Assembly: GCA_903884505.1 (NCBI GenBank)
Contig: CAISET010000015.1
Location: 10,819 to 74,818 of the forward strand
Length of the DNA stretch: 64,000 nt
Reading direction: 5' to 3'
Source: an uncultured Candidatus Micrarchaeota archaeon
GTDB taxonomy: Archaea; Micrarchaeota; Micrarchaeia; Burarchaeales; Fermentimicrarchaeaceae
The notes under the pieces are model-generated. The model was not told where the DNA came from and made no database searches. It worked only from the letters and a program-made list of their open reading frames with translations. Positions within the stretch are counted from its first letter, which is position 1. Each line of letters starts with the position of its first letter. The position numbers and the translations under genes are program-made. Shown here in pieces: positions 39,464 to 62,142 of the stretch.

Positions 39464-39494
39464 GTTAAAATAAATGCCCTCCGCCGAGGGCGCG

Positions 39495-39512
39495 GTAAAA
39501 ACCTTTTTAACC
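39495..39512 (+). promoter_or_regulatory. Promoter of the pilin operon: BRE/TATA ggtaaaaacctttttaac, 24 bp upstream of the ATG at 39534
   Basis: The ccttttaa-type box is shared with the three giant pilin-like gene promoters. Confidence 0.5.
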
Positions 39513-39533
39513 CCCTCTCCAAATTATAGGCTC

Positions 39534-40064
39534 ATGCGACGGAACAAGGGACAGGCATCCATTGATTCGCCTTCGGCGAAAGCTCGCCGCCTGCTGGGGC
39601 AGGCGTCGATGGAACTTCTAATCACCCTAGCCTTCGCCCTCGTGATGCTCATACCAATCACCATCCTGGTCTACCTGCAGACGTCCTCCGGCTCGGAGCA
39701 GCTGGCGATAGACCAGGCGCAGCAGAGCGCGGCAAGGCTTAAGAACATCGCGGACACCGTGGCGGCCCAGGGCCCGCCGGCGAAGGCGACTATAAGCATA
39801 GTGATTCCACAGAGGCTGAACAGCATAACGATAGGCAGCGCCTCCGCGCCAGGAATAGGCAGGGAGATAATCTTCCACGTAGCGACTTCGGCTGGAGACA
39901 CCGAGATAGTCGCGACAACGCTTTACAATGTTACCGGCGACCTGAGCAACTACACGAAGGCAGGCACGTACCCCATCTATGCTGAAGCTGTGGACGACTG
40001 CCGCACATGTGATGGGAACATCATCGGGCCTGGCCTTCCATGCGTGGTCATCTGTCCGGCGTAG
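39534..40064 (+). CDS. Type IV pilin-like protein (class III signal peptide, Gln+1) P1. The leader holds an internal duplication and a hairpin module.
   Basis: MRRNKGQASIDSPSAKARRLLG|QASMELLITLAFALVMLIPITILVYL. The KG/LG-Q cleavage motif is followed by a ~20-aa hydrophobic helix. The ORF track starts at 39474, upstream of the promoter. Confidence 0.65.
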   Translation: MRRNKGQASIDSPSAKARRLLGQASMELLITLAFALVMLIPITILVYLQTSSGSEQLAIDQAQQSAARLKNIADTVAAQGPPAKATISIVIPQRLNSITIGSASAPGIGREIIFHVATSAGDTEIVATTLYNVTGDLSNYTKAGTYPIYAEAVDDCRTCDGNIIGPGLPCVVICPA

Positions 40065-40074
40065 GGGTGGAAAA

Positions 40075-40539
40075 ATGCGCCGCGCACAGCAGAGCGTTGA
40101 ACTTATGGTCGTGTTCGCGACAGCGCTTGCCACGTTCATAATCTTCTACGCGCTCTTCGCCCAGCAGTATGGCGAGGGCGCGCGCAGGCAGGCGGAAACG
40201 GACGGGACGACACTCACGCAGCAGCTTGCGGAGGAGATAAACATCGCGGCGCGCGCAGGCGACGGCTATTCGAGAAAAATCAGCTACCCGGCGAGAATTC
40301 CCGGGGCCATCAACTACTCGCTGGAGATAAACAACCGCTCCGGCTCGGTGGACCTCGCGATGGAGATGGGCTCGGGCTCGTTCTTCCTTTACTCCGCGCC
40401 TACGCTCACGCGCAACATAACGGGCGAGCCGGCGTATGCGTCCGCATACGGCTACTCCCTTATAATAGCCAGGGGGGCGGCGTATGTCGAGAACAGGGGC
40501 GGGATGATAATCATAAACCAGACAAAGGCGGTCAGATGA
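40075..40539 (+). CDS. Type IV pilin-like protein P2
   Basis: MRRA|QQSVELMVVFATALATFIIFYALF, then a ~130-aa globular part. Starts 10 bp after the P1 stop. Confidence 0.65.
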   Translation: MRRAQQSVELMVVFATALATFIIFYALFAQQYGEGARRQAETDGTTLTQQLAEEINIAARAGDGYSRKISYPARIPGAINYSLEINNRSGSVDLAMEMGSGSFFLYSAPTLTRNITGEPAYASAYGYSLIIARGAAYVENRGGMIIINQTKAVR

Positions 40540-41177
40540 GCTCCCTGAAAGGCCAGACGTGGTCCTACGACCTCGTGATAGCGGTAGTGGTGTTCATGCT
40601 CACCCTCGCATTCCTCATCTTCTTCTGGTGGAGCGTCTCCACGACCATCGGGATGCCGCGGGGGGAGAAGCTGTCGGAGGATGCGAGTGCGATGGCGGAC
40701 GTCCTGCTCTCGCCCGGGAACCCCGCCGACTGGAACGGCACGGTGGACACATCGAACTCGACCTTCTGGGCCAATATAAGCCTGCTCGGAATCGGCGAGG
40801 GGTTCGGCTCCCCGAAAATTTCACAGGACAAGGCCGAGAAGATTCTTGCGATGAACGGAACGAACTACACCGAGCTGAAAGGGAGGTTCATCTCCCCCTA
40901 TAACTTCTACGTGGAGATGAAGGAGTTCTACAACTGCTCGGATCCGGGGGTGGAGTCCTCGCCAATCAACTGCACAGGACGGGGAATTGCGCCCGGCTCG
41001 CCCGAATACTCGGAGCTGGAGCATTATGTCCAGGTCAGCGGGCAGAACTTCACGCTCGGCATCCCGCCATCGGCAGGCGGAGCCCGCTCAGCCGCGGTGG
41101 TGAACAGGTTCGCGATATACAACAATTCATTGGTGAAGCTGAAGGTAGTGCTATGGACAAACCAGACCTGGCAATGA
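40536..41177 (+). CDS. Type IV pilin-like protein P3
   Basis: MSSLKG|QTWSYDLVIAVVVFMLTLAFLIFFWW. ATGA start/stop overlap with P2. N-x-S/T rich. Confidence 0.65.
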   Translation: MSSLKGQTWSYDLVIAVVVFMLTLAFLIFFWWSVSTTIGMPRGEKLSEDASAMADVLLSPGNPADWNGTVDTSNSTFWANISLLGIGEGFGSPKISQDKAEKILAMNGTNYTELKGRFISPYNFYVEMKEFYNCSDPGVESSPINCTGRGIAPGSPEYSELEHYVQVSGQNFTLGIPPSAGGARSAAVVNRFAIYNNSLVKLKVVLWTNQTWQ

Positions 41178-41671: not shown

Positions 41672-41679
41672 GTGAAAAC

Positions 41680-43752
41680 TTGGAAAAACGCAGAAATGTG
41701 CTCAAAGGATTCTTCTTCACGCTACTGATAGTCGTGCTGTTCTCGCTCATCCTCCTCTCGCTGCGCGCCTGGATGAAGGGGCAGCAGGGTCCCGAGGAGC
41801 TGAATGCGGTAAGGGAACGGGCGGATGCAATGACCAGCATGATGGGCTCATGCGCCGCTGACGCGGACAGGATGACCTACCTCGCAGGCAACCGCTCGCT
41901 CTATTATGCGGCGTTCTATTCCGCCTACAACCTGACCGCGCACAGCAGCTCCAACCGCAGCGCCTACGAGATAATGTGGAACGCATCGCTCAACGGCTCC
42001 CCGAACTACGGTGTTCCGCCGGACACGTGCACTGCAGGCTCAAGCTTCTGCTATTTCGCAAACCAGACCGAGAACGCGACAATGGGCCTCTGGTGGCAGG
42101 GATTTGCGGCTGCCGCAGAAAAATACGGCTTCGACGCAAGCTGGCGACTCCACAGCTTCAACGCTTCCCAGTCCTCCCTCTCCGGAGTCTCGATTGCGCA
42201 CACCGCCAGCTTCGGGCTCAATGATTCGGCCGGCGTCGCATCGTTCAACAGGACGGTCTCGTTCAACAGGACCGTGAACATAACCGGCTTCGAGGACCCC
42301 ACGCACGCCATCTTCACCGACGGCGCAACACACCGCAACATCACCTGGTGGCCATACGACGCAAGCTATAATCTCACCTCAACAATCGCCACCGCAAGCA
42401 ACGGAAGCGGCTGGGTTTATGGCAATGCCACAACAATCCCCGGATGCTGCGTGGTCGACAACTGCACGGACGGCACGTTCGATGCCGTGGACTGGAACAC
42501 GACGCTCGTGGTAAACGATTCCAGCGCGCTCGCAGCGAACTGCCCTGATGCCGTGGCCAACAACTTCCGCGGAATCCTCTCCAACTACGGGAACGATTCC
42601 ATGTCAAGCATCACGGTCCCGAATGCATTCAACTTCGTCGGCGACATAACCTCCCTGGTGCCGAACGGGACCGCCGTGCTCATAAACAACGAAGGCGACA
42701 CGCACGAGGCCCTGGACGTGGAGGGGCTGCGCAACCTCACCGAATACGGCGCGTACTACAGGGAGAACCAGAACGCCCCGGACTTCATGATGCGGCTCGA
42801 GATGAATTTCAGCAACTCTCCATACGGGATTGAGTCGCTGATGAACTACTCGGAGGTCACGGACGCCGGCTTAAACCGCTCCTGGGCGGACTATTATTTC
42901 ATCAACGGGACCAGCTGCTCGGACTTGGCATCGGGATGCTTCAAAATCAAGGGGACCCTGAACTGCGAGAACTCCACGAACTGCAGCGACGACTCGGCAA
43001 TCCATTTCAGGCTGGACAACGAGACCGTGGTGGCGCAGCTTCCGGGATGCGTGCAGCCCCCTTCCGGGATGGTCGGGTGGTGGCATTTCGACGAGGGGAC
43101 CGGAACGAACGCCGCAGACAGCTCGGGAAACGGCAATAACGGGACGGTAAACGGCGCAACCTGGAACTCCAGCGGGATGTTCGGGGATGCGCTGACGTTT
43201 GACGGGAGTAATGATTATGTGAATACGACTTCGTCCGCCGGGTTATCCGGAGATTTTACGCTAGAAGCGTGGTTCATCGCAAATACCGTCCCAAACAGCA
43301 AAGGAATCGTAAGTGCCGGCTGCCAAACACCGTCGCAAAATTGTACAGATATAATGGGGTATGACGATAATATAACCGCGTTCATTGGGAGCGGTGGGGC
43401 ATACCTCTACTTGGTGGGGAACACGCCAATTGCTACAGATACCTGGTATTTTGCAACGGTAACCTATAACAGCACAACCCAGAATGTTTCTTTGTATGTT
43501 AATGGCGCGTATGACGCGAGCGCAATCCAGGCTACAACCGTTTCATTAACGCCTGTCTTCGGCAGGTTCTATTCCAATTACAACGATTATTATTTCAACG
43601 GCACCATCGACGAGGTCGCAATCTACAACCGCGCCCTCACGCAGGATGAGATTCAGGCAATCTACAATGCGGGCCCCGCAGGAATGTGCTACGGCATGAG
43701 CATGCCGCACCTCAACTACTACGGGATGGAGAACCTGACCCTGCCGAACTAG
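41680..43752 (+). CDS. Large pilin-like protein P5 with a C-terminal concanavalin-A-like lectin (LamG_3) domain; putative pilus adhesin
   Basis: TTG start. MEKRRNVLKG|FFFTLLIVVLFSLILLSL. ~450 aa are N-glycosylation-sequon rich. The C-terminal GMVGWWHFDEGTGTNAADSSGNGNNGTVNGATWNSSGMFGDALTFDGSNDYV...TWYFATVTYN...GTIDEVAIYNRALTQDEIQAIY is a classic LamG/Laminin_G_3 signature. Confidence 0.7.
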   Translation: MEKRRNVLKGFFFTLLIVVLFSLILLSLRAWMKGQQGPEELNAVRERADAMTSMMGSCAADADRMTYLAGNRSLYYAAFYSAYNLTAHSSSNRSAYEIMWNASLNGSPNYGVPPDTCTAGSSFCYFANQTENATMGLWWQGFAAAAEKYGFDASWRLHSFNASQSSLSGVSIAHTASFGLNDSAGVASFNRTVSFNRTVNITGFEDPTHAIFTDGATHRNITWWPYDASYNLTSTIATASNGSGWVYGNATTIPGCCVVDNCTDGTFDAVDWNTTLVVNDSSALAANCPDAVANNFRGILSNYGNDSMSSITVPNAFNFVGDITSLVPNGTAVLINNEGDTHEALDVEGLRNLTEYGAYYRENQNAPDFMMRLEMNFSNSPYGIESLMNYSEVTDAGLNRSWADYYFINGTSCSDLASGCFKIKGTLNCENSTNCSDDSAIHFRLDNETVVAQLPGCVQPPSGMVGWWHFDEGTGTNAADSSGNGNNGTVNGATWNSSGMFGDALTFDGSNDYVNTTSSAGLSGDFTLEAWFIANTVPNSKGIVSAGCQTPSQNCTDIMGYDDNITAFIGSGGAYLYLVGNTPIATDTWYFATVTYNSTTQNVSLYVNGAYDASAIQATTVSLTPVFGRFYSNYNDYYFNGTIDEVAIYNRALTQDEIQAIYNAGPAGMCYGMSMPHLNYYGMENLTLPN

Positions 43753-43780
43753 TTAGCCCTTTTGGATGGCAACAAATTCA

Positions 43781-44105
43781 TGCCGCCTTGCGGCAACAGC
43801 TTGCCCGCCACCAAGCGGGCAATCGCCTGCTGGCGAAATGTTGGCAACTGCGGCCGCCAACGCTCGCTGCCATATCCAGCCGCCTTCGGCGATTGATTTC
43901 GCCTTGCGGCGAAAGCTTTCGCATCCCGGATGCGAAATTTTAGCGGCAAAGCCGCTAAAGCTGTCGCTTTGCCGCGGGCAAAGCGCCATTGAGTCGCCTT
44001 TCGGCGACAGCTCAAATCGCCTGCGGCGATAACTGCGCAACTCACGTTGCGCATCGCCAACTTCGTTGGCGACTGTCTGTTGTTTCGCCCCGCTCAACAA
44101 CATCC
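43781..44105. repeat. Hairpin-mosaic repeat element, copy C (longest, ~13 mini-hairpins) in the convergent intergenic region
   Basis: TGCCGC-CTTG-CGGCA, GCCCGC-CACCAA-GCGGGC, GTTGGC-..-GCCAAC, CCGCC-TTCG-GCG, TTCGCC-TTGCG-GCGAA, TTCGCATCC-CG-GATGCGAA, AGCGGC-AAA-GCCGCT, CGCTTTGCC-GCG-GGCAAAGCG, GTCGCC-TTTCG-GCGAC, ATCGCC-TGCG-GCGAT, GCGCAAC-TCACG-TTGCGC, GCCAAC-TTCG-TTGGC. The 3' end is a degenerate copy of the shared terminus. Confidence 0.75.
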
Positions 44106-44135
44106 TAAAAGCGCTAGCGGAAAATGCCAAACTCT

Positions 44136-45128
44136 TTACGTAAGTATCCCGGCGAAGACGGTGCTGAATATCCAGTTCGTCATGAAGAAGATCGACAGCC
44201 CGGCAGCCATGATGAAGGGCATTATCCTTAGGCCGTTGGCGGAATTGCCGGTCTGTATGACCGCTATTATAAGAGACGCGATTGCCGTGGTGATGATGGT
44301 CGAGAGAAGGGAGAATGCGAAGAAGTCCGAGGACGTGATTCCGGGTGGCTGGGGCGAGAGGAACATCATCCCGCCGGTCGGCAGGCCCTCGGGGTTCTGC
44401 TCCAGCACCCTGTCCCATATGACGTTCGTGATGTTTATGAGCTGGTTGGACAGCGCATAGAGCAGGGGCGCGCCGACCACGCTCGCGAATATTATGAATA
44501 TGACATACATCAGCATCATTCCGGAAATCTCCTTGTGGAGCAGCTGCAGGTTCCTTATGTCCTGCCCCGTCTTCTCGAGCAGCGCCGCGACCTCGCCACC
44601 TGCCGACATCCCCTCAACGAGGAGGTTTATCGTCCTCTCGAGCGTCTTCGACTGGAACCGCGTCCCGAGCCTCTTTATCGCATCCATGAAAGGCTCGCCG
44701 CTGAACGTCCTCTTCGTGACCATCTCCACCTCCTGCGAGAGCAGGCCGAACTCGGGCCTGGCGGCGAACCACAGCGCCCGGTCTATGGGCATGCCGGCGC
44801 GCACATTGGCGCTCGCGAGCTGGAGGAACTCCGGGAGGATGTTCTCCACCTTGTTCCGCCTGTCGTCTATCCTGAGGAGCAGCCACGCATAAATTATCCC
44901 AAGCGCCACGAATATGAGGCACAGGGAAACTATCAGCGCATATTTCGGAAGGAACGGGTTGATGAGGAAGAACGAGACCAGCGGGACGATCGCGCAGAGC
45001 ACCATAACCGTGCCCACGAACGCCTCGGGCCTCATGTTCACTCCTGCCATCGAGAGCGTGCTCGCAATTCCCATCACGAAGTTCCTCGGAAACATCCTTC
45101 CCAGTGCGTTAAGCTCAACCATATTCAA
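44136..45128 (-). CDS. Type II secretion system F-domain membrane protein (FlaJ/TadC/EpdK-like pilus platform protein), C-terminal-half paralog
   Basis: 330 aa with ~8 TM segments and the T2SSF-like cytoplasmic segment (...LLQLASANVRAGMPIDRALWFAA...). 4-bp overlap with the upstream platform gene. Confidence 0.75.
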   Translation of the reverse strand: MNMVELNALGRMFPRNFVMGIASTLSMAGVNMRPEAFVGTVMVLCAIVPLVSFFLINPFLPKYALIVSLCLIFVALGIIYAWLLLRIDDRRNKVENILPEFLQLASANVRAGMPIDRALWFAARPEFGLLSQEVEMVTKRTFSGEPFMDAIKRLGTRFQSKTLERTINLLVEGMSAGGEVAALLEKTGQDIRNLQLLHKEISGMMLMYVIFIIFASVVGAPLLYALSNQLINITNVIWDRVLEQNPEGLPTGGMMFLSPQPPGITSSDFFAFSLLSTIITTAIASLIIAVIQTGNSANGLRIMPFIMAAGLSIFFMTNWIFSTVFAGILT

Positions 45129-46111
45129 ACCTCGAAGTTCGGCCTTGAAGAACTCATCATCGCAAGGAAGATGTACTGCAGCACCCCGAGCAGGAACAGC
45201 ACGATGAGCAGCATATTGAAGTCAATCTTTATGTTGATGAATGAGGTCAGGATAATGCCTATCGCGATGCCCAGCGAGGGCAGTATGATCCCGAAAAGCA
45301 TGTAGAACATCGTGATCGGGTTCAGCGTCTGCCCGTACCTCTTGAGCGCGATAACCTGCTCCTGCGAAATCTGGCTCAGCACTATCTCGAGCGCCAGCGC
45401 CATGTCGGCGCCGGACCTCATCGATGTGACCATCTGCAGGAGTATCTGCCTGAACGGCTTGGAGGTGTTCATGTCGCTGGACTCCTGCATGGCGATCTCC
45501 GCGGGCACGCCGCTCTGTATCCTCTCCACAATCTTCCCGAATTCCTCGCTCGCCACCCCGTAGTTCCTGCTGACGTTCGCCATCGCGTTGAAGAGCGGGA
45601 CGCCGGACTTTATGGCAATAAGCATGTCCCTCCCGGCGAAAAGCACGTCCCTGTCGAGGTCCTTCTCCCTCGCCTTTATCTTGACTTTCGGATACTGTAT
45701 AACCCACAGGAAGACGGCCGCGAAAACCAGCGGTATCACGAGCAGCGTTAGGAGCAGCGGCAAACTCAGGGTGGTCGCCAGCACTGCGAACAGTACTCCG
45801 CCCCCAAGCGCGAATATGGTTGCGACAATGAGGGTTTGTGCGATGAATTTTGGCGCGTCCATCGGCATGTTCGCCCTCTTCAGGTTCTTCTGGAGCTCCG
45901 GGAACCGCTTCTCTAGGAGCCTGAGGCCTATCTTGATATAGTCGGTCCGCTGCTTCGCCTCCACCCGCGGGAACTTCTTCGGAGGCGCCTTCTCAGCTTC
46001 CGTCCTCTCCACCAGGGCCGCCGTCTCCTTCTTCTGCTTGGCGCTGAGCTTCTTCTTCGCCTCCTCTATTGCAGCCGCAACCTCTGCAGCGCTTTTCTCA
46101 GCCATAAGCAT
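45125..46111 (-). CDS. Type II secretion system F-domain membrane protein (FlaJ/TadB/EpdJ-like pilus platform protein)
   Basis: 328 aa: cytoplasmic N-terminus, then TM helices and a T2SSF segment (...FAGRDMLIAIKSGVPLFNAMANVSRNYG...EIAMQESSDMNTSKPFRQILLQMVTSMRSGADMALALE...). Confidence 0.75.
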   Translation of the reverse strand: MLMAEKSAAEVAAAIEEAKKKLSAKQKKETAALVERTEAEKAPPKKFPRVEAKQRTDYIKIGLRLLEKRFPELQKNLKRANMPMDAPKFIAQTLIVATIFALGGGVLFAVLATTLSLPLLLTLLVIPLVFAAVFLWVIQYPKVKIKAREKDLDRDVLFAGRDMLIAIKSGVPLFNAMANVSRNYGVASEEFGKIVERIQSGVPAEIAMQESSDMNTSKPFRQILLQMVTSMRSGADMALALEIVLSQISQEQVIALKRYGQTLNPITMFYMLFGIILPSLGIAIGIILTSFINIKIDFNMLLIVLFLLGVLQYIFLAMMSSSRPNFEV

Positions 46112-46115
46112 CCAC

Positions 46116-46922
46116 TTACTCTTCCTTCATCTCTTTTTCTATCTCCTCTTTTAAGCGTTCCTCTCTTCTCTTCTTTTCCTCAGAGGACATCCTCTCCGAT
46201 ACCTTCCTGGCGATCTCCTCCTTGAGCACCTTCGCGCGCTCCATCCGCTTTGCCTCATCATCGGTCGGCTTCGCCTCGGGCTGCGGTTTTCCCCCCGCTT
46301 CCGGCGCCTGGGACAACTGCTGTGCGGCGGCCGGCTTCCTCTCCTCCATCTTCTCAAACAGCGTCTTCCTCGGGGCCTTCCCCATGAGCTTGGCAAGCCG
46401 CTCCCCCATCAGGCGCCTCTGTTCCTCCTCGCTGACAGCCGCAGTTGGCGCCTTTACCTCGGGCCTGGTTGGCGGTGCGGCAGGCAGTATCTTCCGCTGC
46501 CCAGCAGGCTCGACTGGCCGCGGCGAAGGGGCCTCGGCGGCGGGCTTCTCCGCCTTTGCTGCGGGCTTCGCTTTGACCTCTTCCTCCGCGAACCTCCTCT
46601 TCATCTTCTCCAGCTCTTCCTGCCCACGCTTCTCCCCTTCCTCCGGCGAGACCCTCGCCGCGCGCGGCGCAGCAGCGGCAGCAGGCACCCGTCCCTGCAC
46701 CACCCCCAGCTTGGCCTCGATGCGCAGCGCATCCTCAAGCGCCTTGTCGAAGCTCATCACGGAGATTTCGGTCGGGTCCTTCTCCTCGAAAAGCGCGGCG
46801 CCGGCGAGCTTCTCCTTCGGGATCTCCGGCATCAGGACAAGCAGCCCCTCAAGCCTCTTCACCTCGGCAATCGCCTCGCTGAAAAGAGCCTGGTCCACGT
46901 TTGGCAGCCTTTCTTCCGGCAT
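46116..46922 (-). CDS. Highly charged K/E/A/P-rich low-complexity protein (pilus-operon accessory; unknown)
   Basis: 268 aa with EEEVKAKPAAKAEKPAAEA-type tracts. Lies between the ATPase and platform genes on the same strand. Confidence 0.4.
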   Translation of the reverse strand: MPEERLPNVDQALFSEAIAEVKRLEGLLVLMPEIPKEKLAGAALFEEKDPTEISVMSFDKALEDALRIEAKLGVVQGRVPAAAAAPRAARVSPEEGEKRGQEELEKMKRRFAEEEVKAKPAAKAEKPAAEAPSPRPVEPAGQRKILPAAPPTRPEVKAPTAAVSEEEQRRLMGERLAKLMGKAPRKTLFEKMEERKPAAAQQLSQAPEAGGKPQPEAKPTDDEAKRMERAKVLKEEIARKVSERMSSEEKKRREERLKEEIEKEMKEE

Positions 46923-49632: not shown

Positions 49633-49640
49633 GCCCAGAA

Positions 49641-49670
49641 CTTTTATTAATAGCATTAATAAGCTTTTAG
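49641..49670. promoter_or_regulatory. Bidirectional promoter with perfect palindrome TTATTAAT-AGC-ATTAATAA flanked by cttt/aagctttta
   Basis: The only AT-rich island between the divergent pilus-assembly operon (-) and the gene at 49696 (+). TATA-like halves sit ~25 bp from the starts on each strand. Confidence 0.5.
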
Positions 49671-49695
49671 GTGTCATTATAAACGTCGTGATGCC

Positions 49696-53800: not shown

Positions 53801-55514
53801 CACAGTCAGGAACTGCAACCTGGCCAATTTCAGCAACGGCATCGTTGCCTTCACCACCCACGGCAGCAGCATCATCGGCAACAACGTCAGTTCAACCGAC
53901 TATGGCATCTCCCTATGGTCTTCTTCAACCAACGATACTATTGCGGGCAACAACGCCAGCTTTAACATTTTTGGCATCACGCTGAGTTCGTCCAGTGGCA
54001 ACAACTTCACGGACAACATAGCCATGAACAACACTGCCACCGGAAATTCATTTGCCGACTTCTATTGCATATCGTCGGATTCAAACGGTGATTATGGCAA
54101 CGTCTGTGAAACGCAGGCTGGCTGCGAGTCGTGGCTCGGCTGCGGCCTTATGCCCGCCTGCAGTTCCAGCATCACAGAATGCTGCGTAATCAACTCCACT
54201 GGCTCATACTCGCTCGCGGACGATATCTCTGCCGCCGGCGACTGCATAAGCATCCTGCCCGGTGCTAACGGAGCGACGCTTGACTGCGGCGGCAAGACTA
54301 TTACGGGGCCGGGAAACAGCGGCAACGGAATCCAGTTGTTCGGCACAAGCGGAGTGACTGTGGAGAACTGCGGAGTCAGCGGCTTTATGTACGGCATAAG
54401 CTTGTCATCAGCAAACGGCAATGCAATAACAGGCAACAACGCCAGCTCAAACGGCCAGATCGGCATTTTAATGAGTGCATCAAACGGCAATGATATCACG
54501 GGCAACACAGCTAATTCAGACTATAGCGGCATCAGCATGTCGTATTCCGATGGCAACACGATAACCGGCAATACGGTCTCGAACGGCAACTCGAACGGCC
54601 AAGGTATCATTATGTCCCAATGCGATGGCAATGCCATAACCGGAAACACTGTCACCCTGAACTACTACGGTATTTACCTCTCGTATTCAACCGACAACAC
54701 AATCTCCGGCAATATCGCAAACTCGAACCACTTCGGCATCGAAATAGAGTACTCGAGCTACAACAACACCGTGACTGGCAACACTGCCTGCTGGAGCGGT
54801 GAACTGAATAAGAATATCTACTGCGATGTTGCCCAAAACGACGGCGGCGGCAACATCTGCGCACCTGAGGGCCCGAACACGGTCTGCTCGCACAACGTCT
54901 CCTGCGGTTCCGGATGCCCGCCGCCCCTTCCGCCCTCCTGCGCCCCCGGCTGGGTGATAAGTACCTGCCCATGCACCATCGGAGTGCCGGAGAGCTACAC
55001 GCTTGATTCGGACATTAATTACACGAACCCGTCTGGTGGAACCTGCATAACAGTGTCGGCAGGGGCCAGCGGCGCGACCATAAACTGCCAAGACCACAAC
55101 ATCACAGGCTCAGGAAGCGGCTTCGGCATCTCCCTTTACAGCGTCAACGGCATTAGTGTCGAGAACTGCAAAGTGAGCAACTTCAGCAAGGGCATCTACC
55201 TCAGTTACGCCAATGGCAACACCCTAACTAACAACATCGCCAGCTCGAACCACGATACCGGCATCATGATCGAAGGCTCCAACAACAACACCTTTACGGG
55301 CAACACCGCAAACCAGAACACCTACGAAGGCATGTACCTGCAGTACGGAAGCACAAACAACAACTTCACGGGCAATACGGCAATTGGCAACTCGGACTAC
55401 GACTTCATATGCAACAGCTTGAACTCCAACAATGACCTCGGCGGAAATGTATGCAGCAACCGAGATTCCTGCGGCCCGAACCCGCCCTATTGGCTCAACT
55501 GCACCGCACCGTAG
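50805..55514 (+). CDS. Giant pilin-like beta-helix protein B1. The class III signal ...HIKG|QAAIEFLITNGWAILVVV puts mature Gln at 51102. Five ~215-aa Cys-rich-linker + parallel beta-helix modules follow. The start codon is uncertain.
   Basis: 1569-aa ORF. The first 99 codons are read through hairpin element D, with no ATG/GTG/TTG just upstream of KG|Q. The module is ...ACWNxYGDVYCDAPQTEGNGNICMPYEGTAC..SITCNPxCPxPxPPxCAPGWVVSSCxCxLNxPGNYTLESDLN...DCQHHSIT...NNLTGNTA... (PbH1/NosD-like repeats). Confidence 0.65.
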   Translation: MSRNRAQSEPPMRRLESPSAIVSPSGDSSPTSLATAAQLPLRIALRSNAICASAQMRRSSPPRRTCERTRSPRISSRLRRLPVARCATSSVPEPPHIKGQAAIEFLITNGWAILVVVILLAVLFYIGVLSPQNTTPNTCLFQPGFSCYTFKVGNVTGSLELDFGQATGKSILVTGISCSQNATAALHTSPLAEDITVPSGEHRWIAGGTSNNSGIICEGATGVAGSRYKGTVCVNYIESDANAQRLICGDINARLEPASIPRGSPTTTPYPTPPLGATPITDCSSSPIIISSPGYYYLNSSLTSSGNNCIEITADASNSILDCYGHSITGTPYSGAGIYLQATTGVTLRHCVVSTFYQGILLGPSSTGNIITDNTASSNQHGIFLQSANGNTITGNIANSNGDTGIYFFSSSDNNLTGNNALANNGYGIYTDGNSANNLFTGNAACWNRNQDVHCDVSQSEGNDNICMPYEETVCSGSITCNPVCPAPPAPACAPGFVVSSCDCVLNVPGNYTLESDLNETQGGDCIDIIANDSNLDCQHHSITSQSGGTGIMIVNWNTYSISGVSVENCNASNLSYGIYAYGVYNSTITDNIASANQYGIFIQSSSGNIISGNTANSNPNTNIYLSSATDNNLTGNTALASINGYGVYADGSSSNNLLTENSACWNQYGDVYCDAPQTEGNGNICMPYEGTACLDSITCNPTCPSPSPPDCAPGWVVSSCGCTLNMPGNYTLESDLNSTGGDCIDITANGANLDCQHHSITTQGGGNGIMIANWNTGSISEVSVENCNPSNFSVGIYAYGLSGGNMSGNTASANSEGMMLQNSNGIEITGNTASSNSDVGILLSSSSDNNLTGNHATGNNGIGGIYADSGSSNNLLTDNTACWNTYYGIYCDAPQTEGNGNICMPYGETACLGSITCNSECPPPEPPACAPDWVVNSCSCILGVPGDYTLDSDLHYSDYSDCIDLYSGASGSTLDCQGHSITGVPGMGQGIALWSNNITVRNCNLANFSNGIVAFTTHGSSIIGNNVSSTDYGISLWSSSTNDTIAGNNASFNIFGITLSSSSGNNFTDNIAMNNTATGNSFADFYCISSDSNGDYGNVCETQAGCESWLGCGLMPACSSSITECCVINSTGSYSLADDISAAGDCISILPGANGATLDCGGKTITGPGNSGNGIQLFGTSGVTVENCGVSGFMYGISLSSANGNAITGNNASSNGQIGILMSASNGNDITGNTANSDYSGISMSYSDGNTITGNTVSNGNSNGQGIIMSQCDGNAITGNTVTLNYYGIYLSYSTDNTISGNIANSNHFGIEIEYSSYNNTVTGNTACWSGELNKNIYCDVAQNDGGGNICAPEGPNTVCSHNVSCGSGCPPPLPPSCAPGWVISTCPCTIGVPESYTLDSDINYTNPSGGTCITVSAGASGATINCQDHNITGSGSGFGISLYSVNGISVENCKVSNFSKGIYLSYANGNTLTNNIASSNHDTGIMIEGSNNNTFTGNTANQNTYEGMYLQYGSTNNNFTGNTAIGNSDYDFICNSLNSNNDLGGNVCSNRDSCGPNPPYWLNCTAP
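50827..51090. repeat. Hairpin-mosaic repeat element, copy D (8 mini-hairpins), inside the 5' end of the first giant pilin-like gene
   Basis: Starts cagaacccccgatgcgcaggcttga-GTCGCCTTCGGCGA... and ends ...GTCGCCTTCGGCGAC-tgcct-GTTGCGCGTTGCGCAAC-atcgtcggttcctgaac, as in copies A and B. Confidence 0.8.
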
Positions 55515-55623: not shown

Positions 55624-57075
55624 GTGGTTCCCTTGGGAGAGAAGCGCGCTCAATCGGCTCTTGAATTTCTCATGACCTACGGCTGGGCCATAGTACTCAT
55701 ACTCGCCGCCATCGCAGCCCTCTACTACTTCGGATTCTTCGAATCCACCCGCTACGTCCCGAGGAGCTGCACGCTGCAGCCCGCGCTTCCGTGCGACACC
55801 TACGTGATGGGCTACAACGCGAGCGCCACCGAGCCGCTCTCCTTCAAGATGCTGAGCCACAACGGCCTCGGTTCCGACATAAACCTCACCGGCTTCTCCA
55901 TAAGCGTTGAAAACATCGGAGGGGTGGGGACGAACACCTACCAGGGCGCATGCTCCAGCTATGACAACACCACCCAAACAATCTCCTCGCTCACGCATCC
56001 GGGCAATCTCATCATCTGCGATGCAGACATACCGGACACGGACCGCATCCCGCGCATCGGCGATCCGGTCCGCTTCACGATAACAATGTATTACGTCAAC
56101 TGCGAAACCGACCCGAACTACCACACGACGGGCTCCTGCTTGGGAGGCACCGCGCACACCGTGCAGGGCTCGGTGAACACGCAGCTCGAGTACGAGCACG
56201 AAATGCCCTACCCCACCCCATGCTGCCCGCTCCCAACCCCGTCCCCAACTGCCAGCCCATCCCCGTCACCTTCGCCAACTGCAAGCCCGTCCCCAAGCCC
56301 CTCACCTTCGCCAAGCCCATCGCCTTCGCCCAGCCCTTCCGTGACCCCATCCTCTTGCCCGACTGGAGGCGGAACCATATTGGCCTGCCCATGCACCATA
56401 CACGGGGCGGGCACGTATACTTTGGGCGATGATCTGAACCCGAATCCAGACGGCTTCACCTGCCTGGTAGTGCAAAGCGATTCCGACAATGCAGTAATCA
56501 ACTGCGATGGCCATAACATCACGGGCCCAGGCGATTTCGGCGTTGTCGTATATGCCAACGGCGTCACCCTTGAGGGCTGCAACATACATCAGTACGGGAA
56601 GGGCATCGTGACTTACGGCAACAACACCATCATAACGAATAATAGGATGACCGAGGGCGACATAGGGATAGACCTTGAAAGCAACGGAAACCGCGTAACC
56701 GGCAACAACGCATCACACAATGGCTATCCCTTAGTTGCCGGCACTGGACTCATAGTAGGCGGCTCCAACAATGTGATTGAGAACAACTATTTCGATTCGA
56801 ACTGGGGCGGCACCGGTTCCTACGAAGGGGGCATTGGCATCGACATAGAAGGGTCGTCGGCAAGCGGCAACAATTTCACAAACAACGAGGCCATCGGGAA
56901 CAACTACTGGGGCGTTTACCTCGGCTATCTCACCCACACCGATAACAGGTTCACGGGCAACACGGCGACCGGCAACCCGCACGGAGACTTCAAATGCAAT
57001 TCGGCAAGCGCCATAGACGGTGACAACATCTGCTCGGACGATCAAGGCTGCAGCAGCTGGCTCCACTCCTGTTGA
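55624..57075 (+). CDS. Pilin-like beta-helix protein B2 (GTG start; alternative TTG at 55633). Class III signal ..EKRA|QSALEFLMTYGWAIVLILAAI.
   Basis: ~480 aa: a conserved ~170-aa post-pilin domain shared with B3/B4 (DTSRY(I/V)PRxC.LQP.L.C..., NCE(A/T)DP(D/N)YHTTG.C), an (SP)n linker, a Cys knot, then parallel beta-helix repeats (..VTGNNASHNGY.., ..FTNNEAIGNNYWG.., ..FTGNTATGNPHGDFKCNS..). Confidence 0.7.
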   Translation: MVPLGEKRAQSALEFLMTYGWAIVLILAAIAALYYFGFFESTRYVPRSCTLQPALPCDTYVMGYNASATEPLSFKMLSHNGLGSDINLTGFSISVENIGGVGTNTYQGACSSYDNTTQTISSLTHPGNLIICDADIPDTDRIPRIGDPVRFTITMYYVNCETDPNYHTTGSCLGGTAHTVQGSVNTQLEYEHEMPYPTPCCPLPTPSPTASPSPSPSPTASPSPSPSPSPSPSPSPSPSVTPSSCPTGGGTILACPCTIHGAGTYTLGDDLNPNPDGFTCLVVQSDSDNAVINCDGHNITGPGDFGVVVYANGVTLEGCNIHQYGKGIVTYGNNTIITNNRMTEGDIGIDLESNGNRVTGNNASHNGYPLVAGTGLIVGGSNNVIENNYFDSNWGGTGSYEGGIGIDIEGSSASGNNFTNNEAIGNNYWGVYLGYLTHTDNRFTGNTATGNPHGDFKCNSASAIDGDNICSDDQGCSSWLHSC

Positions 57076-57166: not shown

Positions 57167-57189
57167 CACCTTCTGCCCAGTCTTCCCGG

Positions 57190-60100
57190 GTGGTCCCTTT
57201 GAAGAACAGCGGGCAGTCGGCACTTGAGTTCCTCATGACCTACGGTTGGGCCCTACTCGTGGTATTGGTCTTCATCTCCGCCCTCTACCTATTCGGCGTA
57301 TTCGACACGAGCCGCTACATCCCGAGGCAGTGCTACCTGCAGCCCGGGCTCGAATGCACCTCCTTCAAGATGATGAAAAACGAGAGCAACATGACGGTCG
57401 AATTTTCGGGCCGCAACGACTTCGGCTATGACATCGGGTTCGCAAACAACACGGCGACGCTGTTGGCCGAGAACATAGGGGGGATAGGCAAGAACAATTA
57501 CACCGGCACCTGCTCACCCTCCATAGTAAGGGCGGGCACCACCTACACCTGCATCATCAACATCACGGACAATGCGCGCGTCCCCGCGCTCGGCGAAATG
57601 CGCAGGATGTCGCTTTCATTGGGTTTCAAGAACTGCGAGGCCGATCCGGACTACCACACGACCGGCGACTGCTTCACGGTTCTTGCGCAAGACCACACGC
57701 TCACGGGTGAAATCGCCACGCAGATGGAAAACTACCAGAGCCTCAGCCTCTGCGGCAACGGCATATGCGATGACAACCTCGGAGAGACCAATGACACCTG
57801 CTCCCAGGACTGCAACGTCACCGCCGTGGGCCTGCAGATAGCCGCAGACCCGCAAGCCATACCGGCCGACGGCACCTCCTCCTTGCTGGTAACGGTAACA
57901 GTCCTGGACATATTCAGCCACCCCATCGAGGGCGCCTTGGTCCATTTCGAGAAGAACACCAGCGTGGGCTCTTTCAACGTTGACAGCAACACCACCGATG
58001 CGAACGGCCAGGCGACCGTCACCCTGACTTCCGGCAACAGCGAGGCGCAGGTGCAGATAAACGCAACATCCGACACCGCGACGGGCAGCACGGTCGTCGC
58101 CTTCACCTTCGGCTGCGGCGTGATTATCTCGGAGGACACAAACCTCACGGACGACCTTTCCTCCACCAGCCCCGGCTGCTGCATCATCATCGCGGCGGAC
58201 GGCGTAACGCTTGACGGCATGGGCCACACCATTTCCGGCGGCGGCGTCGGGAACGGCGTTTGCGCAATCAACCGCACCGGCGTGACCGCCAAGAACCTCA
58301 GGCTTGCAAGCACCAACTACGGGATATACTTTGAGAACACGAACGACAGCTTCATCACGGGCAACAACGCAACCCCGGACAACGAATACGGCATCATCCT
58401 TAACCTCTCCAACGGCAACAGCCTCTCCGGCAACACCGCCAGCAGCAACGGCGCATACGGCATCTTCCTCACCGCCAGCGCATTCAACATCTTCACGGGC
58501 AACAACATCACCAACAATTCCGGCGACGGCATCTCCCTCGCGAGCAACAGCAATTCCAACAACTTCACCGGCAACAACGTAACCTACAACACGGGGAACG
58601 GCATACGCCTGGACTCCATCAGCAATAGCAACCTCACGGGCAACCGCGTCTGCAGCAACACCGTCTCGGACTTCAGCTGCTCCGGCTCGGCCAACAACCC
58701 GGATGGCAACGTTTACGACACCAACTCCGGCTGCACGGAGATTACGCAGACCGTGGACTGCGCAGGCGAGCACACCATCAATGACTGCACCACGGTTTCC
58801 TCCTCCGGCACATGGCACGTGGGACGGGACATAGGGTTCACGGGCGGCACCTGCTGCATCAACATCACCGCAGACAACGTCGTGATTAACGGCTCCAGCT
58901 ACTCCATCACCGGCGACAACGCCACAGGAAGCATGGGCGTGTGCACGTACGACAAGCAGGGCATCACGGTCGCGGACCTGACCACTGCTTCGGTGCAATA
59001 CGGAATCTATTTCTCCAACACGCAAAGCAGCATTATAACGCGCTGCAATGCCAGGAATACGCTCAGCGGGAGCGGCATCCGCCTTGATTACTCCAATTCA
59101 AACAACATCACGGGCACCAACGTGACCTCGAACGATGCAGCCGGCGTCCCGCGCAATGGTGCCATCTACCTGAACAACTCGGACAGCAACAGGATTACCG
59201 GGAGCAATGCAAGTTCGAACAGCGCGGGAGGCATCCTGCTGCATTATTCCGACAGCAACACCATCTCAGGCAACACTGTCACTTCGAATTCGGGGCCTAG
59301 CGTAGGAGGCATTTACCTAGATGGCAGCAACAGCAACAGCATAACGGGCAATACTGTCAGCGGGAATAGCGACGGCATAGGATTGTTAGGTAATGTGGAG
59401 CCCCCCTACGCCTACTGCTGCAACTCCAACACCGTCTCGGGCAACAGCGTTACAAACAACGGCGTAGGCATCGGCCTAGACTGCAGCGGCGGGACAGGCG
59501 ACGGCCGCAACAACGTCATCTCAGACAACAACATCTGGTCAAACAGCGACAACGGCATTGGCATAACTTCTTCCATACTCGATACCACAATACTGAGGAA
59601 TAACATCACCTACAATACCCATGGCATCGAAGCAATTTTCGGCATGGGCGGCTCTTACATGACAATCGCAGGGAATAACATAAGTTCGAATTCGTTAAGC
59701 GGCATCGTCATAGAAGATGGCGATGTGAACACCATAGCAAACAACACCGTCAATTCGAATAGCCTCGGCGGCATCCGGCTTCACTACTCGACGGGCAATA
59801 CCCTAACGAACAACACATTTAATTCAAATACGGAGACCGGCATATGGCTGCAAAATTCCAACAACACCCAACTCAGCAACAACACGGCCTGTTTCAACTC
59901 CGTAATAGACTTCAATTGCAGCGAAGGCGCGACCAACGACTGGGGCAACAACTTCTACGATTACAACTCAGGGTGCGGCATATTCCAAATCGCCAACTGC
60001 TCATTCTCGCCAATCAGCGACTGCGGCATAATCTCCTCCAGGGGAAACTATTACCTGACGGATGATATCACATTCACGGGCTCCGGCTGCTGCATCAACA

Positions 60101-60465
60101 TAACGTCAGACAACGTCCTCCTCGATGGGAAGTACAAGTCCATAGGGGGCAATGGCAACGGGTACGGGGTCTGCGCCACCGGGAGGCTGAACGTGACGGT
60201 CCAGAATGCCACCGTGTGGGGCACTGAATACGGCATCTACTTCGACGGGACGAACAGCAGCTACATCCTAACCGACATCATGAGCGGGAACACCTATGAC
60301 ATATACGCGCTCTCATCCATCAGCAACACGATTGCAAACAACCTTGCCTGCTCAAGCGATCCCAGTTGGGGCCTCTATTGCTCCGGCTCGAGCGGCACCT
60401 TCACCGATAATAGCTGCAATAACCAGAGCGGATGCGGCGCCACCTGCTCACCCTGCGTGGACTAG
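57190..60465 (+). CDS. Giant pilin-like beta-helix protein B3 (GTG 57190 or TTG 57199: MKNSG|QSALEFLMTYGWALLVVLVFI)
   Basis: ~1090 aa: pilin N-domain, Big_1-like Ig domain (LQIAADPQAIPADGTSSLLVTVTVLD...ANGQATVTLTSG), then three long parallel beta-helix repeat arrays (..GNNxT.N.GxGI.L..S.SN..TGN..), each preceded by a Cys-rich segment. Confidence 0.7.
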   Translation: MVPLKNSGQSALEFLMTYGWALLVVLVFISALYLFGVFDTSRYIPRQCYLQPGLECTSFKMMKNESNMTVEFSGRNDFGYDIGFANNTATLLAENIGGIGKNNYTGTCSPSIVRAGTTYTCIINITDNARVPALGEMRRMSLSLGFKNCEADPDYHTTGDCFTVLAQDHTLTGEIATQMENYQSLSLCGNGICDDNLGETNDTCSQDCNVTAVGLQIAADPQAIPADGTSSLLVTVTVLDIFSHPIEGALVHFEKNTSVGSFNVDSNTTDANGQATVTLTSGNSEAQVQINATSDTATGSTVVAFTFGCGVIISEDTNLTDDLSSTSPGCCIIIAADGVTLDGMGHTISGGGVGNGVCAINRTGVTAKNLRLASTNYGIYFENTNDSFITGNNATPDNEYGIILNLSNGNSLSGNTASSNGAYGIFLTASAFNIFTGNNITNNSGDGISLASNSNSNNFTGNNVTYNTGNGIRLDSISNSNLTGNRVCSNTVSDFSCSGSANNPDGNVYDTNSGCTEITQTVDCAGEHTINDCTTVSSSGTWHVGRDIGFTGGTCCINITADNVVINGSSYSITGDNATGSMGVCTYDKQGITVADLTTASVQYGIYFSNTQSSIITRCNARNTLSGSGIRLDYSNSNNITGTNVTSNDAAGVPRNGAIYLNNSDSNRITGSNASSNSAGGILLHYSDSNTISGNTVTSNSGPSVGGIYLDGSNSNSITGNTVSGNSDGIGLLGNVEPPYAYCCNSNTVSGNSVTNNGVGIGLDCSGGTGDGRNNVISDNNIWSNSDNGIGITSSILDTTILRNNITYNTHGIEAIFGMGGSYMTIAGNNISSNSLSGIVIEDGDVNTIANNTVNSNSLGGIRLHYSTGNTLTNNTFNSNTETGIWLQNSNNTQLSNNTACFNSVIDFNCSEGATNDWGNNFYDYNSGCGIFQIANCSFSPISDCGIISSRGNYYLTDDITFTGSGCCINITSDNVLLDGKYKSIGGNGNGYGVCATGRLNVTVQNATVWGTEYGIYFDGTNSSYILTDIMSGNTYDIYALSSISNTIANNLACSSDPSWGLYCSGSSGTFTDNSCNNQSGCGATCSPCVD

Positions 60466-60473
60466 CCTTTCAT

Positions 60474-60487
60474 AAGCTTTTTTAAAC
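60474..60487 (+). promoter_or_regulatory. Promoter of B4 (agcttttttaaaca); TATA ends ~26 bp before the GTG at 60511
   Basis: Same box and spacing as for B2/B3. Confidence 0.5.
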
Positions 60488-60510
60488 ACCCTGCTGCCAA
60501 TTTCCGTACT

Positions 60511-62142
60511 GTGATAGCTCCGGGAAAAAGGCACGGGCAATCCGCGATTGAATTGCCTTCGGCAATAGCTCGCAGATCGCACGGGCAATCTGCGATTGAA
60601 TTCCTCGCCACGTACGGCTGGGCCCTCCTCATCATCCTCGTATTCATCGCCGCCCTATACCTATTCGGCGTATTCGACACGAGCCGCTACATCCCGAGGC
60701 ACTGCTCACTGGAGCCCGGGCTCGAGTGCTCCTCCTTCAAGATGATGAAGAACGACACGTACATCACCGTGGTCTTCTCGGGCTACAACGGCCTCGGCTA
60801 CGACATAGGGTTCGATGCCGGCACCGCAACCCTGATGGCCGAGAACATAGGGGGCATAGGCAAGAACAACTACGTGGGCACGTGCTCTCCATCCCTGGTC
60901 AGGAAAGGGACGCCCTATACCTGCGTAATCATCACCAAGGACATGAACCGAACCCCTGCGCTCGGAGAGGCACGAAGGATGGGCATCTCACTCACATACA
61001 AGAACTGCGAGACAAATCCCGCCTACCTCGCAAACCGCACGGCAGCCAACTGCGCCGCCCCGCTCGCCCAGAGCCGCACGGTCACGGGCGAAATGGCCAC
61101 CCAGATGGAAAGCTATTCCGACACCCTATGCGGGAACGGAATCTGCGACGACAACCTGGGGGAAACCGCTTCAAACTGCCCGGCCGACTGCCTGCCCCGG
61201 CCATTCAGCATGCACCTCGCCTCCAACCAGTCCGCCATAACGGCAAACGGCTCCTCCTCGCTTCTGACAGCGACCCTCTTCGACCAGTTCGGCAGCCCGC
61301 TCCCCGACTTCGAGGTTGATTTCAGCCAGAACTCCACCGATGGGTCGCTCGATTCCAGCTCGGGCACCACGAACGACACCGGGCAGGCCAGCGTCACCCT
61401 CACCTCGGGAACAACCCCGCAGTGGGTGCTCGTGAACGCGACGGCGGGCTCGGCATCCGGGATTACGGTCGTGGTCTTCACAGGGGCCGCCCCGACTCCA
61501 ACTCCTACCCCAACCCCCACACCAACTGCAACTCCGACGCCAACGCCCACACCTACTCCAACCCCCACGCCGACCCCAACTCCGGCACCGACCTGTCCCG
61601 ATTCCGGGCAAACGGAGTTAACGACTTGCACCGGAACGCCGATTTCGAGTGCCGGCACATACGTCATGTGCCACAATCTCACATCTTGCACGGGCTTTAC
61701 GATAGGCGCAGACAACGTTTTGCTGGACTGCCAGGGTTACTCGTTGATCGGCTCCGGGAGCGGAACAGGCATGTACATGCTCGACCGCACCGGAGTGAAC
61801 GTGACTAACTGCAACATTCAGAGCTTCAGCTTAGGCATGTATCTCAACGGCGGCAGCGGCAGCCATGGCTGCAGGGTTACAAACAACAACTTCACAAGTG
61901 ACACCACTGCAATGCAGGTATGGCATTCATCATACAGCAACCTAATCCAGAACAACAGGATTACGGGCGCCACGAATGGGTTTTATGTCGCCTTGAGTGC
62001 CTCTAGCAACACATTCACAAACAACATCGGAACGAGCAACACTTACGACTTTATCTGCGCTAGCGAAGGATCTGGCAACACCGCCACCGGGAACACCTGT
62101 ACCTACCGCGATTCCTGCACCTGGGTCGATTGCGGATCGTGA
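60511..62142 (+). CDS. Pilin-like beta-helix protein B4 (GTG 60511 or TTG 60553). The leader carries a 24-bp duplication around a TTCG hairpin.
   Basis: MIAPGKRHGQSAIELPSAIARRSHG|QSAIEFLATYGWALLIILVFI. Same N-domain and Big_1-like domain as B3 (78% identical stretches), a (TP)n linker, a Cys knot and a short beta-helix array. Confidence 0.7.
   Translation: MIAPGKRHGQSAIELPSAIARRSHGQSAIEFLATYGWALLIILVFIAALYLFGVFDTSRYIPRHCSLEPGLECSSFKMMKNDTYITVVFSGYNGLGYDIGFDAGTATLMAENIGGIGKNNYVGTCSPSLVRKGTPYTCVIITKDMNRTPALGEARRMGISLTYKNCETNPAYLANRTAANCAAPLAQSRTVTGEMATQMESYSDTLCGNGICDDNLGETASNCPADCLPRPFSMHLASNQSAITANGSSSLLTATLFDQFGSPLPDFEVDFSQNSTDGSLDSSSGTTNDTGQASVTLTSGTTPQWVLVNATAGSASGITVVVFTGAAPTPTPTPTPTPTATPTPTPTPTPTPTPTPTPAPTCPDSGQTELTTCTGTPISSAGTYVMCHNLTSCTGFTIGADNVLLDCQGYSLIGSGSGTGMYMLDRTGVNVTNCNIQSFSLGMYLNGGSGSHGCRVTNNNFTSDTTAMQVWHSSYSNLIQNNRITGATNGFYVALSASSNTFTNNIGTSNTYDFICASEGSGNTATGNTCTYRDSCTWVDCGS

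Follow-up and report, generated by a model that had tools for sequence, protein, structure and literature searches.

In bacteria, more than 1200 modular pilins are known in which the pilin acts as a carrier for further domains, and these proteins have been modelled as probably located at the filament tip (PMC8179133). In archaea, proteins with class III signals (SPIII) and diverse C-terminal domains, including 'long beta-helical structures', have been suggested to functionalise type IV filament (TFF) machineries, and adhesin-like proteins have been noted in TFF loci (10.64898/2026.04.22.720090). A cultivated Micrarchaeote has been observed to bear thin pilus-like filaments, with no adhesin known (PMC11329633), and host recognition and attachment by DPANN episymbionts are poorly understood. 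Here we analyse a stretch of 64,000 nucleotides (nt) from an uncultured Candidatus Micrarchaeota archaeon (contig CAISET010000015.1, positions 10,819 to 74,818), called the window below, which carries at 39474-62142 an archaeal type IV pilus locus followed by four large open reading frames (ORFs), B1-B4. Their products begin with a pilin module and continue into beta-helix arrays. We favour, with a probability of roughly 0.6, the view that B1-B4 belong to the modular type IV pilins and present adhesin cargo via the adjacent pilus machinery, in which case the locus supplies concrete candidates for attachment.

The case for B1-B4 starts from their N-terminal domain. A word-indexed protein search with the N-domain of B3 returned four relatives only, and the family was found by an exhaustive profile search: the profile of the B1-B4 N-domains, about 190 amino acids (aa) long, gathered at least 8000 representatives, most of them 145-200 aa in length; the number reaching E <= 1e-10 was 4103. 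Family leaders are short and basic (MKKQG↓QSALEF and MRKG↓QAAMEF, for example, the arrow marking the predicted cleavage site). Gln+1, Glu+5 and a Trp are near-invariant, and so are Cys pairs and the residues G76, G113, Y143 and E177. The AlphaFold2 model of the B3 N-domain consists of an N-terminal helix (residues 4-31) and a beta-sandwich, with a predicted local distance difference test score (pLDDT) of 81.5. Residues ~8-150 of the B1 N-domain align with a pilin of 160-200 aa encoded 3' of the TadC platform genes in most related loci. Since family homology, modelled fold and near-full-length alignment to small pilins agree, we conclude that B1-B4 carry a complete pilin module and not merely a signal-anchor. 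The proposal of an earlier sequence-only reading of this DNA, that the four proteins are pilin fusions, is thus borne out: the N-domain is homologous over its full length to ordinary DPANN pilins, its model has the helix and beta-sandwich, and homologues of B1-B4 elsewhere keep the pilin N-terminus, whose absence from them that reading had named as a refutation.

A scan in the manner of FlaFind, requiring a start codon close by and [KR][GA] followed by a hydrophobic segment, gave eight sites in the window, five of them in this locus, against 0.13 in shuffled sequences. P1, P5 (two of the pilin-like genes described below), B3 and B4 depart from the scan motif only at position -2 or at +1/+2. 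The motif scan, the Gln+1/Glu+5 profile and the helix-plus-sandwich model together point to pilin-like class III subunits whose cleavage is predicted.

Downstream of the pilin module, every B protein continues into a Cys-knot, Big_1 and/or one to seven beta-helix modules, and all four are rich in Cys and N-glycosylation sequons. The mature proteins B1, B2, B3 and B4 measure 1470, 474, 1083 and 518 aa, about 162, 52, 119 and 57 kDa, and the earlier description of them as megadalton-scale has to be given up. Both Ig-like (Big_1) and beta-helix domains had been ascribed to the four proteins: the beta-helix is present in all, Big_1 in B3 and B4 only. According to Pfam, B1 matches NosD (E 1e-93) and Beta_helix in seven stretches, B3 Big_1 plus NosD/Beta_helix, and B4 Big_1 plus Beta_helix; B2 has no Pfam match, and its C-terminus is 35% identical to the B1 beta-helix modules (E 1e-22). 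The matches to NosD (PF05048) are repeated generic beta-helix matches in six stretches, and no nos genes lie near the B genes, so that a NosD orthologue of a nos cluster is not what these proteins represent. The full-length model of B4 (pLDDT 79.2) shows helix, pilin beta-sandwich, Cys knot, Big_1, a disordered Pro/Thr linker and beta-helix arranged as beads on a string.

The fusion recurs. Among the 150 best-scoring family representatives, 46 exceed 300 aa and reach up to 2134 aa; nearly all of these open with the pilin domain or have it close to the N-terminus (residues ~2-190), and in a few it begins at residues 20-175. Their cargo comprises NosD (21), Beta_helix (20) and Big_1 (19), as well as RCC1, CarboxypepD_reg, LamG, TSP3, HINT and, in one of the 46, DUF2341. 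The named members are Micrarchaeota proteins such as QLJ52402.1 of Fermentimicrarchaeum limneticum (1576 aa).

These features suggest a mechanism. The carrier would be made of the beta-sandwich pilin module and a hydrophobic helix with Glu+5, preceded by a class III leader that ends in (G/A)↓Q. To this carrier evolution would have added, as cargo, a disulfide knot, Big_1 as an Ig-like spacer, Pro/Thr linkers and between one and seven right-handed beta-helix modules. Once the leader had been removed by a prepilin peptidase presumably encoded outside the window, the ATPase/TadC motor would insert the pilin module, through its N-terminal helix, into a pilus or a short pseudopilus, and the cargo would reach out past the S-layer and serve as an adhesin, probably one that binds glycans, towards surfaces or the episymbiont's host cell. 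Because the cargo is bulky, the B proteins would probably be low-abundance or tip-proximal subunits and not the bulk of the fibre; P1-P5 would most likely make up the complex that primes the filament or sits at its tip, capped by P5 with its LamG domain. That the leader is cleaved, that the B proteins enter a filament and that they act as adhesins is what we infer from sequence.

The locus consists of three gene blocks on alternating strands (Table 1): five small-to-medium genes, P1-P5 (+); two T2SSF genes, a charged protein, the T2SSE ATPase and a 406-aa coiled-coil protein (-); and the 368-aa gene p368 followed by B1-B4 (+). All the components listed by the sequence-only reading were found where it had placed them, and it was right to recognise an archaeal type IV pilus locus here: an ATPase of the FlaI/TadA family, a pair of TadC-type genes and several pilin-like genes in succession are all present. 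The hidden Markov model searches it had called for matched T2SSE, T2SSF (twice) and Laminin_G_3 in Pfam, so that both the ATPase and the platform of a type IV filament are present.

Table 1. Features of the type IV pilus locus and its B genes (coordinates are window positions; arrows mark predicted cleavage sites).
Feature	Coordinates	Strand	Remarks
P1, pilin-like, 176 aa	39534-40064	+	leader MRRNKG↓QASID, hairpin insert, functional-looking site LLG↓QASMELLITLAF
P2, pilin-like, 154 aa	40075-40539	+	site MRRA↓QQSVELMVVF
P3, pilin-like, 213 aa	40536-41177	+	site MSSLKG↓QTWSYDLVIAVVVF
P4, pilin-like, 172 aa	41153-41671	+	site MNRKG↓VVLTMDALFALALLL
P5, large pilin-like, 690 aa	41680-43752	+	site VLKG↓FFFTLLIVVLF; C-terminal LamG lectin-type domain 43201-43656
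Partial repeat copy, convergent intergenic region P5/TadC	43861-44075	+	MITE-like repeat
Platform protein 1 (TadC/FlaJ-type, one T2SSF domain, PF00482)	44136-45128	-	Pfam T2SSF, E 3.6e-14
Platform protein 2 (TadC/FlaJ-type, one T2SSF domain, PF00482)	45125-46111	-	Pfam T2SSF, E 1.8e-16
Highly charged low-complexity protein, 268 aa, between ATPase and platform genes	46116-46922	-	position conserved
Assembly ATPase (FlaI/GspE2/TadA family)	46932-48443	-	Pfam T2SSE (PF00437), E 1e-38
Cytoplasmic coiled-coil protein, probable N-terminal winged helix-turn-helix (wHTH), directly upstream of ATPase	48457-49677	-	coiled-coil-type matches to SMC/Rad50
p368, cytoplasmic, four ~80-aa repeats, divergent from ATPase operon	49696-50802	+	in 49 related loci
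B1	50805-55514	+	mature from 51102; pilin module 51102-~51680; ~6-7 beta-helix modules of ~219 aa, Cys-rich connectors between
B2	55624-57075	+	mature from 55651; pilin module, Pro/Ser linker, one beta-helix module; TATA-like box 55595
B3	57190-60465	+	mature from 57214; pilin module, CGNGICD-type Cys knot, Big_1, multiple beta-helix; TATA-like box 57159
B4	60511-62142	+	mature from 60586; pilin module to ~61113; Big_1 61207-61482; Pro/Thr linker 61489-61584; beta-helix 61612-62088; TATA-like box 60480
SMC-type chromosome segregation ATPase gene	62320-64000	+	begins right after B4

The locus was compared with a set of 80 loci around ATPase homologues, one genome per species; a metagenome scan with alignment returned six loci. 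The closest structures of the ATPase in the PDB are Archaeoglobus fulgidus GspE2 (2OAP, 1e-75), FlaI (2e-62) and CpaF (3e-51). It scores under the cut-offs of the FlaI model (309 bits against 550, its best NCBIfam match), the TadA model and the BasE model (148 bits against 1000). With FlaI under its cut-off and no archaellin family match above threshold, the locus does not qualify as an archaellum. Identity of the ATPase across Micrarchaeota is 60-86%, and its best named relatives all belong to Candidatus Micrarchaeota/Micrarchaeia. The order coiled-coil protein, ATPase, variable charged protein, TadC, TadC is conserved in Micrarchaeota, Aenigmatarchaeota, Nanohaloarchaea and Parvarchaeota; the adjacent TadC pair is present in 69 of the related loci and the coiled-coil gene upstream of the ATPase in 66. 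The charged protein matches no family in Pfam or NCBIfam, and close relatives encode a counterpart at the same position, of 269 aa (L086) or 310 aa (L085). For the protein announced as wHTH-coiled-coil, the coiled coil is confirmed and the wHTH matches stay below threshold. Together with p368 it flanks a divergent promoter region; both are DPANN- or Micrarchaeota-specific and widely kept beside the ATPase.

The row of five pilin-like genes, the last one ending in LamG, is confirmed. P1-like genes recur in DPANN loci, the orthologue in L086 having 154 aa and the leader MRFKTKRG↓QSGTELF. P2 has a weak Arch_flagellin match (E 0.06) and, after profile iteration, orthologues in 28 loci. Operons of the type P2-P2-P3-P4-P5 recur in Micrarchaeota, Aenigmatarchaeota, Nanohaloarchaea and Parvarchaeota. 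In P5, residues 508-659 match Laminin_G_3 (Pfam, E 5e-24) and orthologues align to residues 1-450 only (483 aa in L086, for instance), which identifies LamG as a lineage-specific added module. Assignment of P5 to TafC was rejected, the match covering only the LamG domain at 52 bits against a cut-off of 410. By gene content and order, P1-P5 and the ATPase/TadC core represent the standard type IV pilus machinery predicted in DPANN/Micrarchaeota genomes, and the B genes lie outside that core.

B1-B4 occupy the interval between p368 and smc, which varies among relatives. The gene following p368 encodes a Q-type pilin of 243 aa in L083 and L091, 340 aa in L061 and L065, at least 1772 aa in L086, and B1 here. 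In L086, whose ATPase is 77% identical, this protein is a pilin-Big_1-beta-helix fusion and the five P genes have the convergent orientation that they have here; in L083 and L091 (83% identical) the pilin ends in a short Cys-rich tail, and L091 has in addition an 887-aa pilin-Big_1-beta-helix gene that abuts smc, as B4 does here. Such differences describe a variable island that always opens with a Q-type pilin bearing a C-terminal addition of variable size. The pairing of p368 with a Q-type pilin and the smc-abutting gene of L091 support a link between the B proteins and the machinery.

B1 starts 2 nt after p368, and a conserved CTTTTAA(A/G) box precedes the GTG starts of B2, B3 and B4 (55624, 57190 and 60511) by 29-31 nt. 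A GGTGG before the TTG codons at 55633 and 57199 was considered as a Shine-Dalgarno sequence and set aside, the TATA-like boxes upstream of the GTG starts giving the better fit. No beta-helix pilin was found within 10 kb of the ATPase among the 80 related loci. The idea that the B genes encode the major products of a pilus operon does not survive these observations: they belong to a variable island, B2-B4 have TATA-like boxes of their own, the 80 related loci lack them and their homologues lie mostly among housekeeping genes. A public contig from sample ERZ1426813 contains an identical ATPase and p368 followed, in place of B1-B4, by a 157-aa gene and housekeeping genes; it may represent a strain without the island or a misassembly through a repeat element, given that contigs break in the repeat after p368.

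A small Q-type pilin of 125-178 aa, usually 3' of the TadC genes, is found in about 45 of the 80 related loci. The B N-domain being the counterpart of this pilin, and no short Q-type pilin of the B family being present in the 64-kb window, B1-B4 could be the main structural subunits that replace the canonical locus-linked pilin, forming a thick 'bottle-brush' fibre whose sheath consists of Ig and beta-helix modules, with flexible Pro/Thr linkers that could let the cargo splay out. We hold this to be distinctly unlikely. The normal-sized P1 and P2 are also Gln+1/Glu+5 pilins and could serve as major subunits, genes for major pilins often lie elsewhere in the genome (PMC4858521), each subunit would bring along 50-160 kDa of steric bulk, models of bacterial modular pilins place them at the tip (PMC8179133) and the B1 leader is disrupted.

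That disruption is due to a hairpin-rich repeat resembling a miniature inverted-repeat transposable element (MITE). Its copies lie at 34241-34366, 34540-34703, between P5 and the platform genes (Table 1) and at 50826-~51090, and end in the imperfect terminal inverted repeats CAGAACCCCCGATG / CATCGTCGGTTCCTG. The core motif GCCTTCGGC occurs nine times against 1.4 expected, on the + strand only. Two copies flank the one tRNA-Cys gene of the window, which contains no rRNA, and the public contigs L087 and L088 break inside the repeat. In B1, the ATG at 50805 encodes a vestigial leader, MSRNRA↓QSE, after which 265 nt of repeat run in frame without stop codons up to the site HIKG↓QAAIEF, which has no start codon beside it; for comparison, the B1 homologue P0139 begins MKSSRA↓QAAIEFLITNGW (QAAIEF). 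The junction is found again in an independent assembly (L089, 99.9%).

P1 and B4, the latter with the leader MIAPGKRHG↓QSAIE, contain a smaller insertion: 30 nt carrying the hairpin of the repeat (39567-39596 and 60553-60582), placed exactly after codon +5 and framed by an 18-nt duplication of codons -1 to +5 (39549-39566 / 39597-39614 and 60535-60552 / 60583-60600). Each gene has thereby 48 extra in-frame nt and two tandem G↓Q-x-A-x-E/D motifs; L086 has a P1 orthologue free of the insertion. Similar in-frame inserts occur elsewhere (L090 6497-6604, L063 ~6260-6330, L012 ~15380-15500); with P1 and B4 these make five cases, of 30-87 nt, each lying exactly after codon +5 and flanked by the 18-nt duplication. 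The L090 insert measures 72 nt and is 93% identical to part of the window repeat. Most leader inserts fold into hairpins, seven of nine differences between duplicated motif copies are synonymous, and the layout is met in several DPANN lineages and in ~5% of family representatives, for instance P0188 (MDKKGQSAIE-SPAAITRTLR-GQSAMEY). Rickettsia palindromic elements are selfish, hairpin-rich repeats likewise inserted in frame inside ORFs, free of stop codons and tolerated by the protein. The insertions described here differ in residing in removable pilin leaders, in five cases after codon +5 with an 18-nt duplication, and in being archaeal. If site-specific, they would constitute a new example of selfish or regulatory DNA exploiting a part of a protein that is discarded after processing. 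A bolder scenario makes them a switch: four cargo-bearing paralogues would replace the ordinary pilin and polymerise as a host-gripping 'bottle-brush', and the leader hairpin/MITE insertions, with the doubled cleavage motif that they bring about in P1 and B4, would modulate which paralogue is made or processed. We regard it as a long shot.

The same insertions bear on whether the N-termini could be ordinary Sec signal-anchors, or the genes decaying, so that resemblance to pilins would be irrelevant to function. The repeat inside the B1 leader could be taken as a sign of decay, public gene calls start B1 after the helix, and curated pilin models fail to match; for all that, this explanation is very improbable, considering that Gln+1, Glu+5 and Trp are conserved family-wide behind short basic leaders, that the ORFs are long and intact (up to 1569 codons), that every leader insertion is in frame without stop codons and that the differences between duplicated motifs are mostly synonymous.

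Several observations count against B1-B4 as pilins displaying cargo through this machinery. The nine N-termini gave no pilin, Class_IIIsignal or DUF361 match in Pfam or NCBIfam at E up to 5, so the DUF361 search suggested in the sequence-only reading came out negative. The leaders of B1, B4 and P1, of 98, 24 and 26 residues, are disrupted or extended, and their processing is predicted only. No A24 prepilin peptidase was found among the multi-transmembrane ORFs in a search confined to the 64-kb window, nor did any turn up in the 10 kb around the ATPase gene of related loci. Neither a PDB sequence search nor PHROGs provided clues to the ligand or function of the beta-helices. Finally, the giant homologues P0135 and P0141 lie among housekeeping genes and the F. 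limneticum protein is also far from pilus genes, which means that adjacency to pilus genes may be incidental here.

These unlinked homologues suit a different explanation. B1-B4 would be surface proteins whose class III signal and helix serve only as a cleavable anchor in the membrane; they would stay unpolymerised and stand on the membrane or a short stalk independently of the pilus, much like the sugar-binding proteins of Sulfolobus before bindosome assembly. The separate TATA-like boxes of B2-B4, the variability of the p368-smc island and a cargo very bulky for packing into a filament fit that picture. We nevertheless judge it rather unlikely: the whole globular pilin module, and not the helix alone, is kept and conserved (Cys pairs, G76, G113, Y143, E177), Glu+5 is conserved, and the pair p368-pilin is maintained beside the ATPase operon.

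Membrane proteases with a GxGD motif near related loci were examined as candidate prepilin peptidases and turned out to be of the presenilin/signal peptide peptidase (SPP) type. About ten Micrarchaeota genomes have such a protease downstream of the pilus locus, with YD, GTGD and PAL motifs (Pfam SPP, E 2e-17), at ~+8 to +10 kb from the ATPase (loci L018, L027, L030, L040-L042, L045, L053 and L067). Other surface proteins are encoded in the window. A 3456-aa ORF at 12917-23287 (+), with a Sec-type signal (MLLVPVLLIIFSLSASA) and Big_13 near its C-terminus as sole Pfam match, is followed by two secreted proteins (23339-24661 and 24677-26110), and the three may form a giant S-layer or surface protein cluster. 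At 31175-33628 (-) lies another unannotated surface protein, secreted and Cys-rich, of 817 aa, with Pro/Thr linkers and no Pfam match.

The sequence-only reading had called the system undescribed. This applies to the giant-pilin family itself; it does not extend to the principle, since modular pilins are established in bacteria (PMC8179133) and archaeal beta-helical class III proteins have been noted (10.64898/2026.04.22.720090). The giant pilin-anchored Ig/beta-helix family is so far known mainly from Micrarchaeota, and a strain-variable island beside a conserved pilus motor is the pattern expected of determinants of host range or surface specificity.

Among described machineries, the locus resembles the Epd pilus of Methanococcus maripaludis ('clade 1' or 'system 1'; PMC4858521; 10.64898/2026.04.22.720090) in its two TadC-type platform genes, several minor pilin-like genes, Gln+1 and large adhesin-like class III proteins in or near the locus, and system 1 has been reported in DPANN. 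Two platform genes also occur in some DPANN '4A' systems and are not exclusive to Epd (10.64898/2026.04.22.720090). The differences are that the window contains no EppA, no short class III ORF corresponding to the Epd-type major pilin of ~70 aa without globular domain, and no DUF2341 (PilY-like) protein, of which EppA and the short pilin could lie elsewhere in the genome, and that the coiled-coil, p368 and charged accessory proteins are DPANN- or Micrarchaeota-specific. The Epd label attached by the sequence-only reading is not supported by what the window contains.

The Sulfolobus bindosome (Bas) likewise involves non-filament cargo with class III signals that depends on a T4P-like (type IV pilus-like) ATPase and platform. 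Here the cargo is Ig/beta-helix in place of ATP-binding cassette (ABC) substrate-binding domains, no ABC transporter is adjacent, the BasE score is low and the full globular pilin module is kept; the locus does not fit the bindosome type. With the adhesin-like beta-helix (PbH1/NosD-like) proteins of methanogens and other archaea, the B proteins share surface right-handed beta-helix arrays, N-glycosylation sequons and Cys-rich connectors. As far as is known, those archaeal proteins use Sec signals and C-terminal anchors, whereas the B proteins have an N-terminal pilin module.

The closest parallel is with bacterial modular pilins such as PilB and PilC of Streptococcus sanguinis and CofB of enterotoxigenic Escherichia coli (ETEC), in which a class III signal and pilin carrier receive modules (vWA, lectin/LamG, beta-repeat) grafted C-terminally via a linker (Raynaud et al. 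2021, PMC8179133). The same architecture is found here, a class III signal and pilin module preceding Big_1/beta-helix in B1-B4 or LamG in P5, and P5 parallels bacterial PilC. The archaeal proteins, known here from their sequences, differ by an Ig-like-type pilin module with Gln+1, by a cargo of Big_1 and up to seven beta-helix modules and by their size: the longest protein has 1470 aa in this locus and 2134 aa in the family as a whole, compared with 860 aa for the longest of the bacterial cases listed (PMC8179133). The 'modular pilin' principle is extended in this way from bacteria to archaea and to far larger cargo: the machinery is of a known kind, no new type of system is involved, and the cargo-bearing pilins are an extreme archaeal variant of a known principle within an undescribed family.

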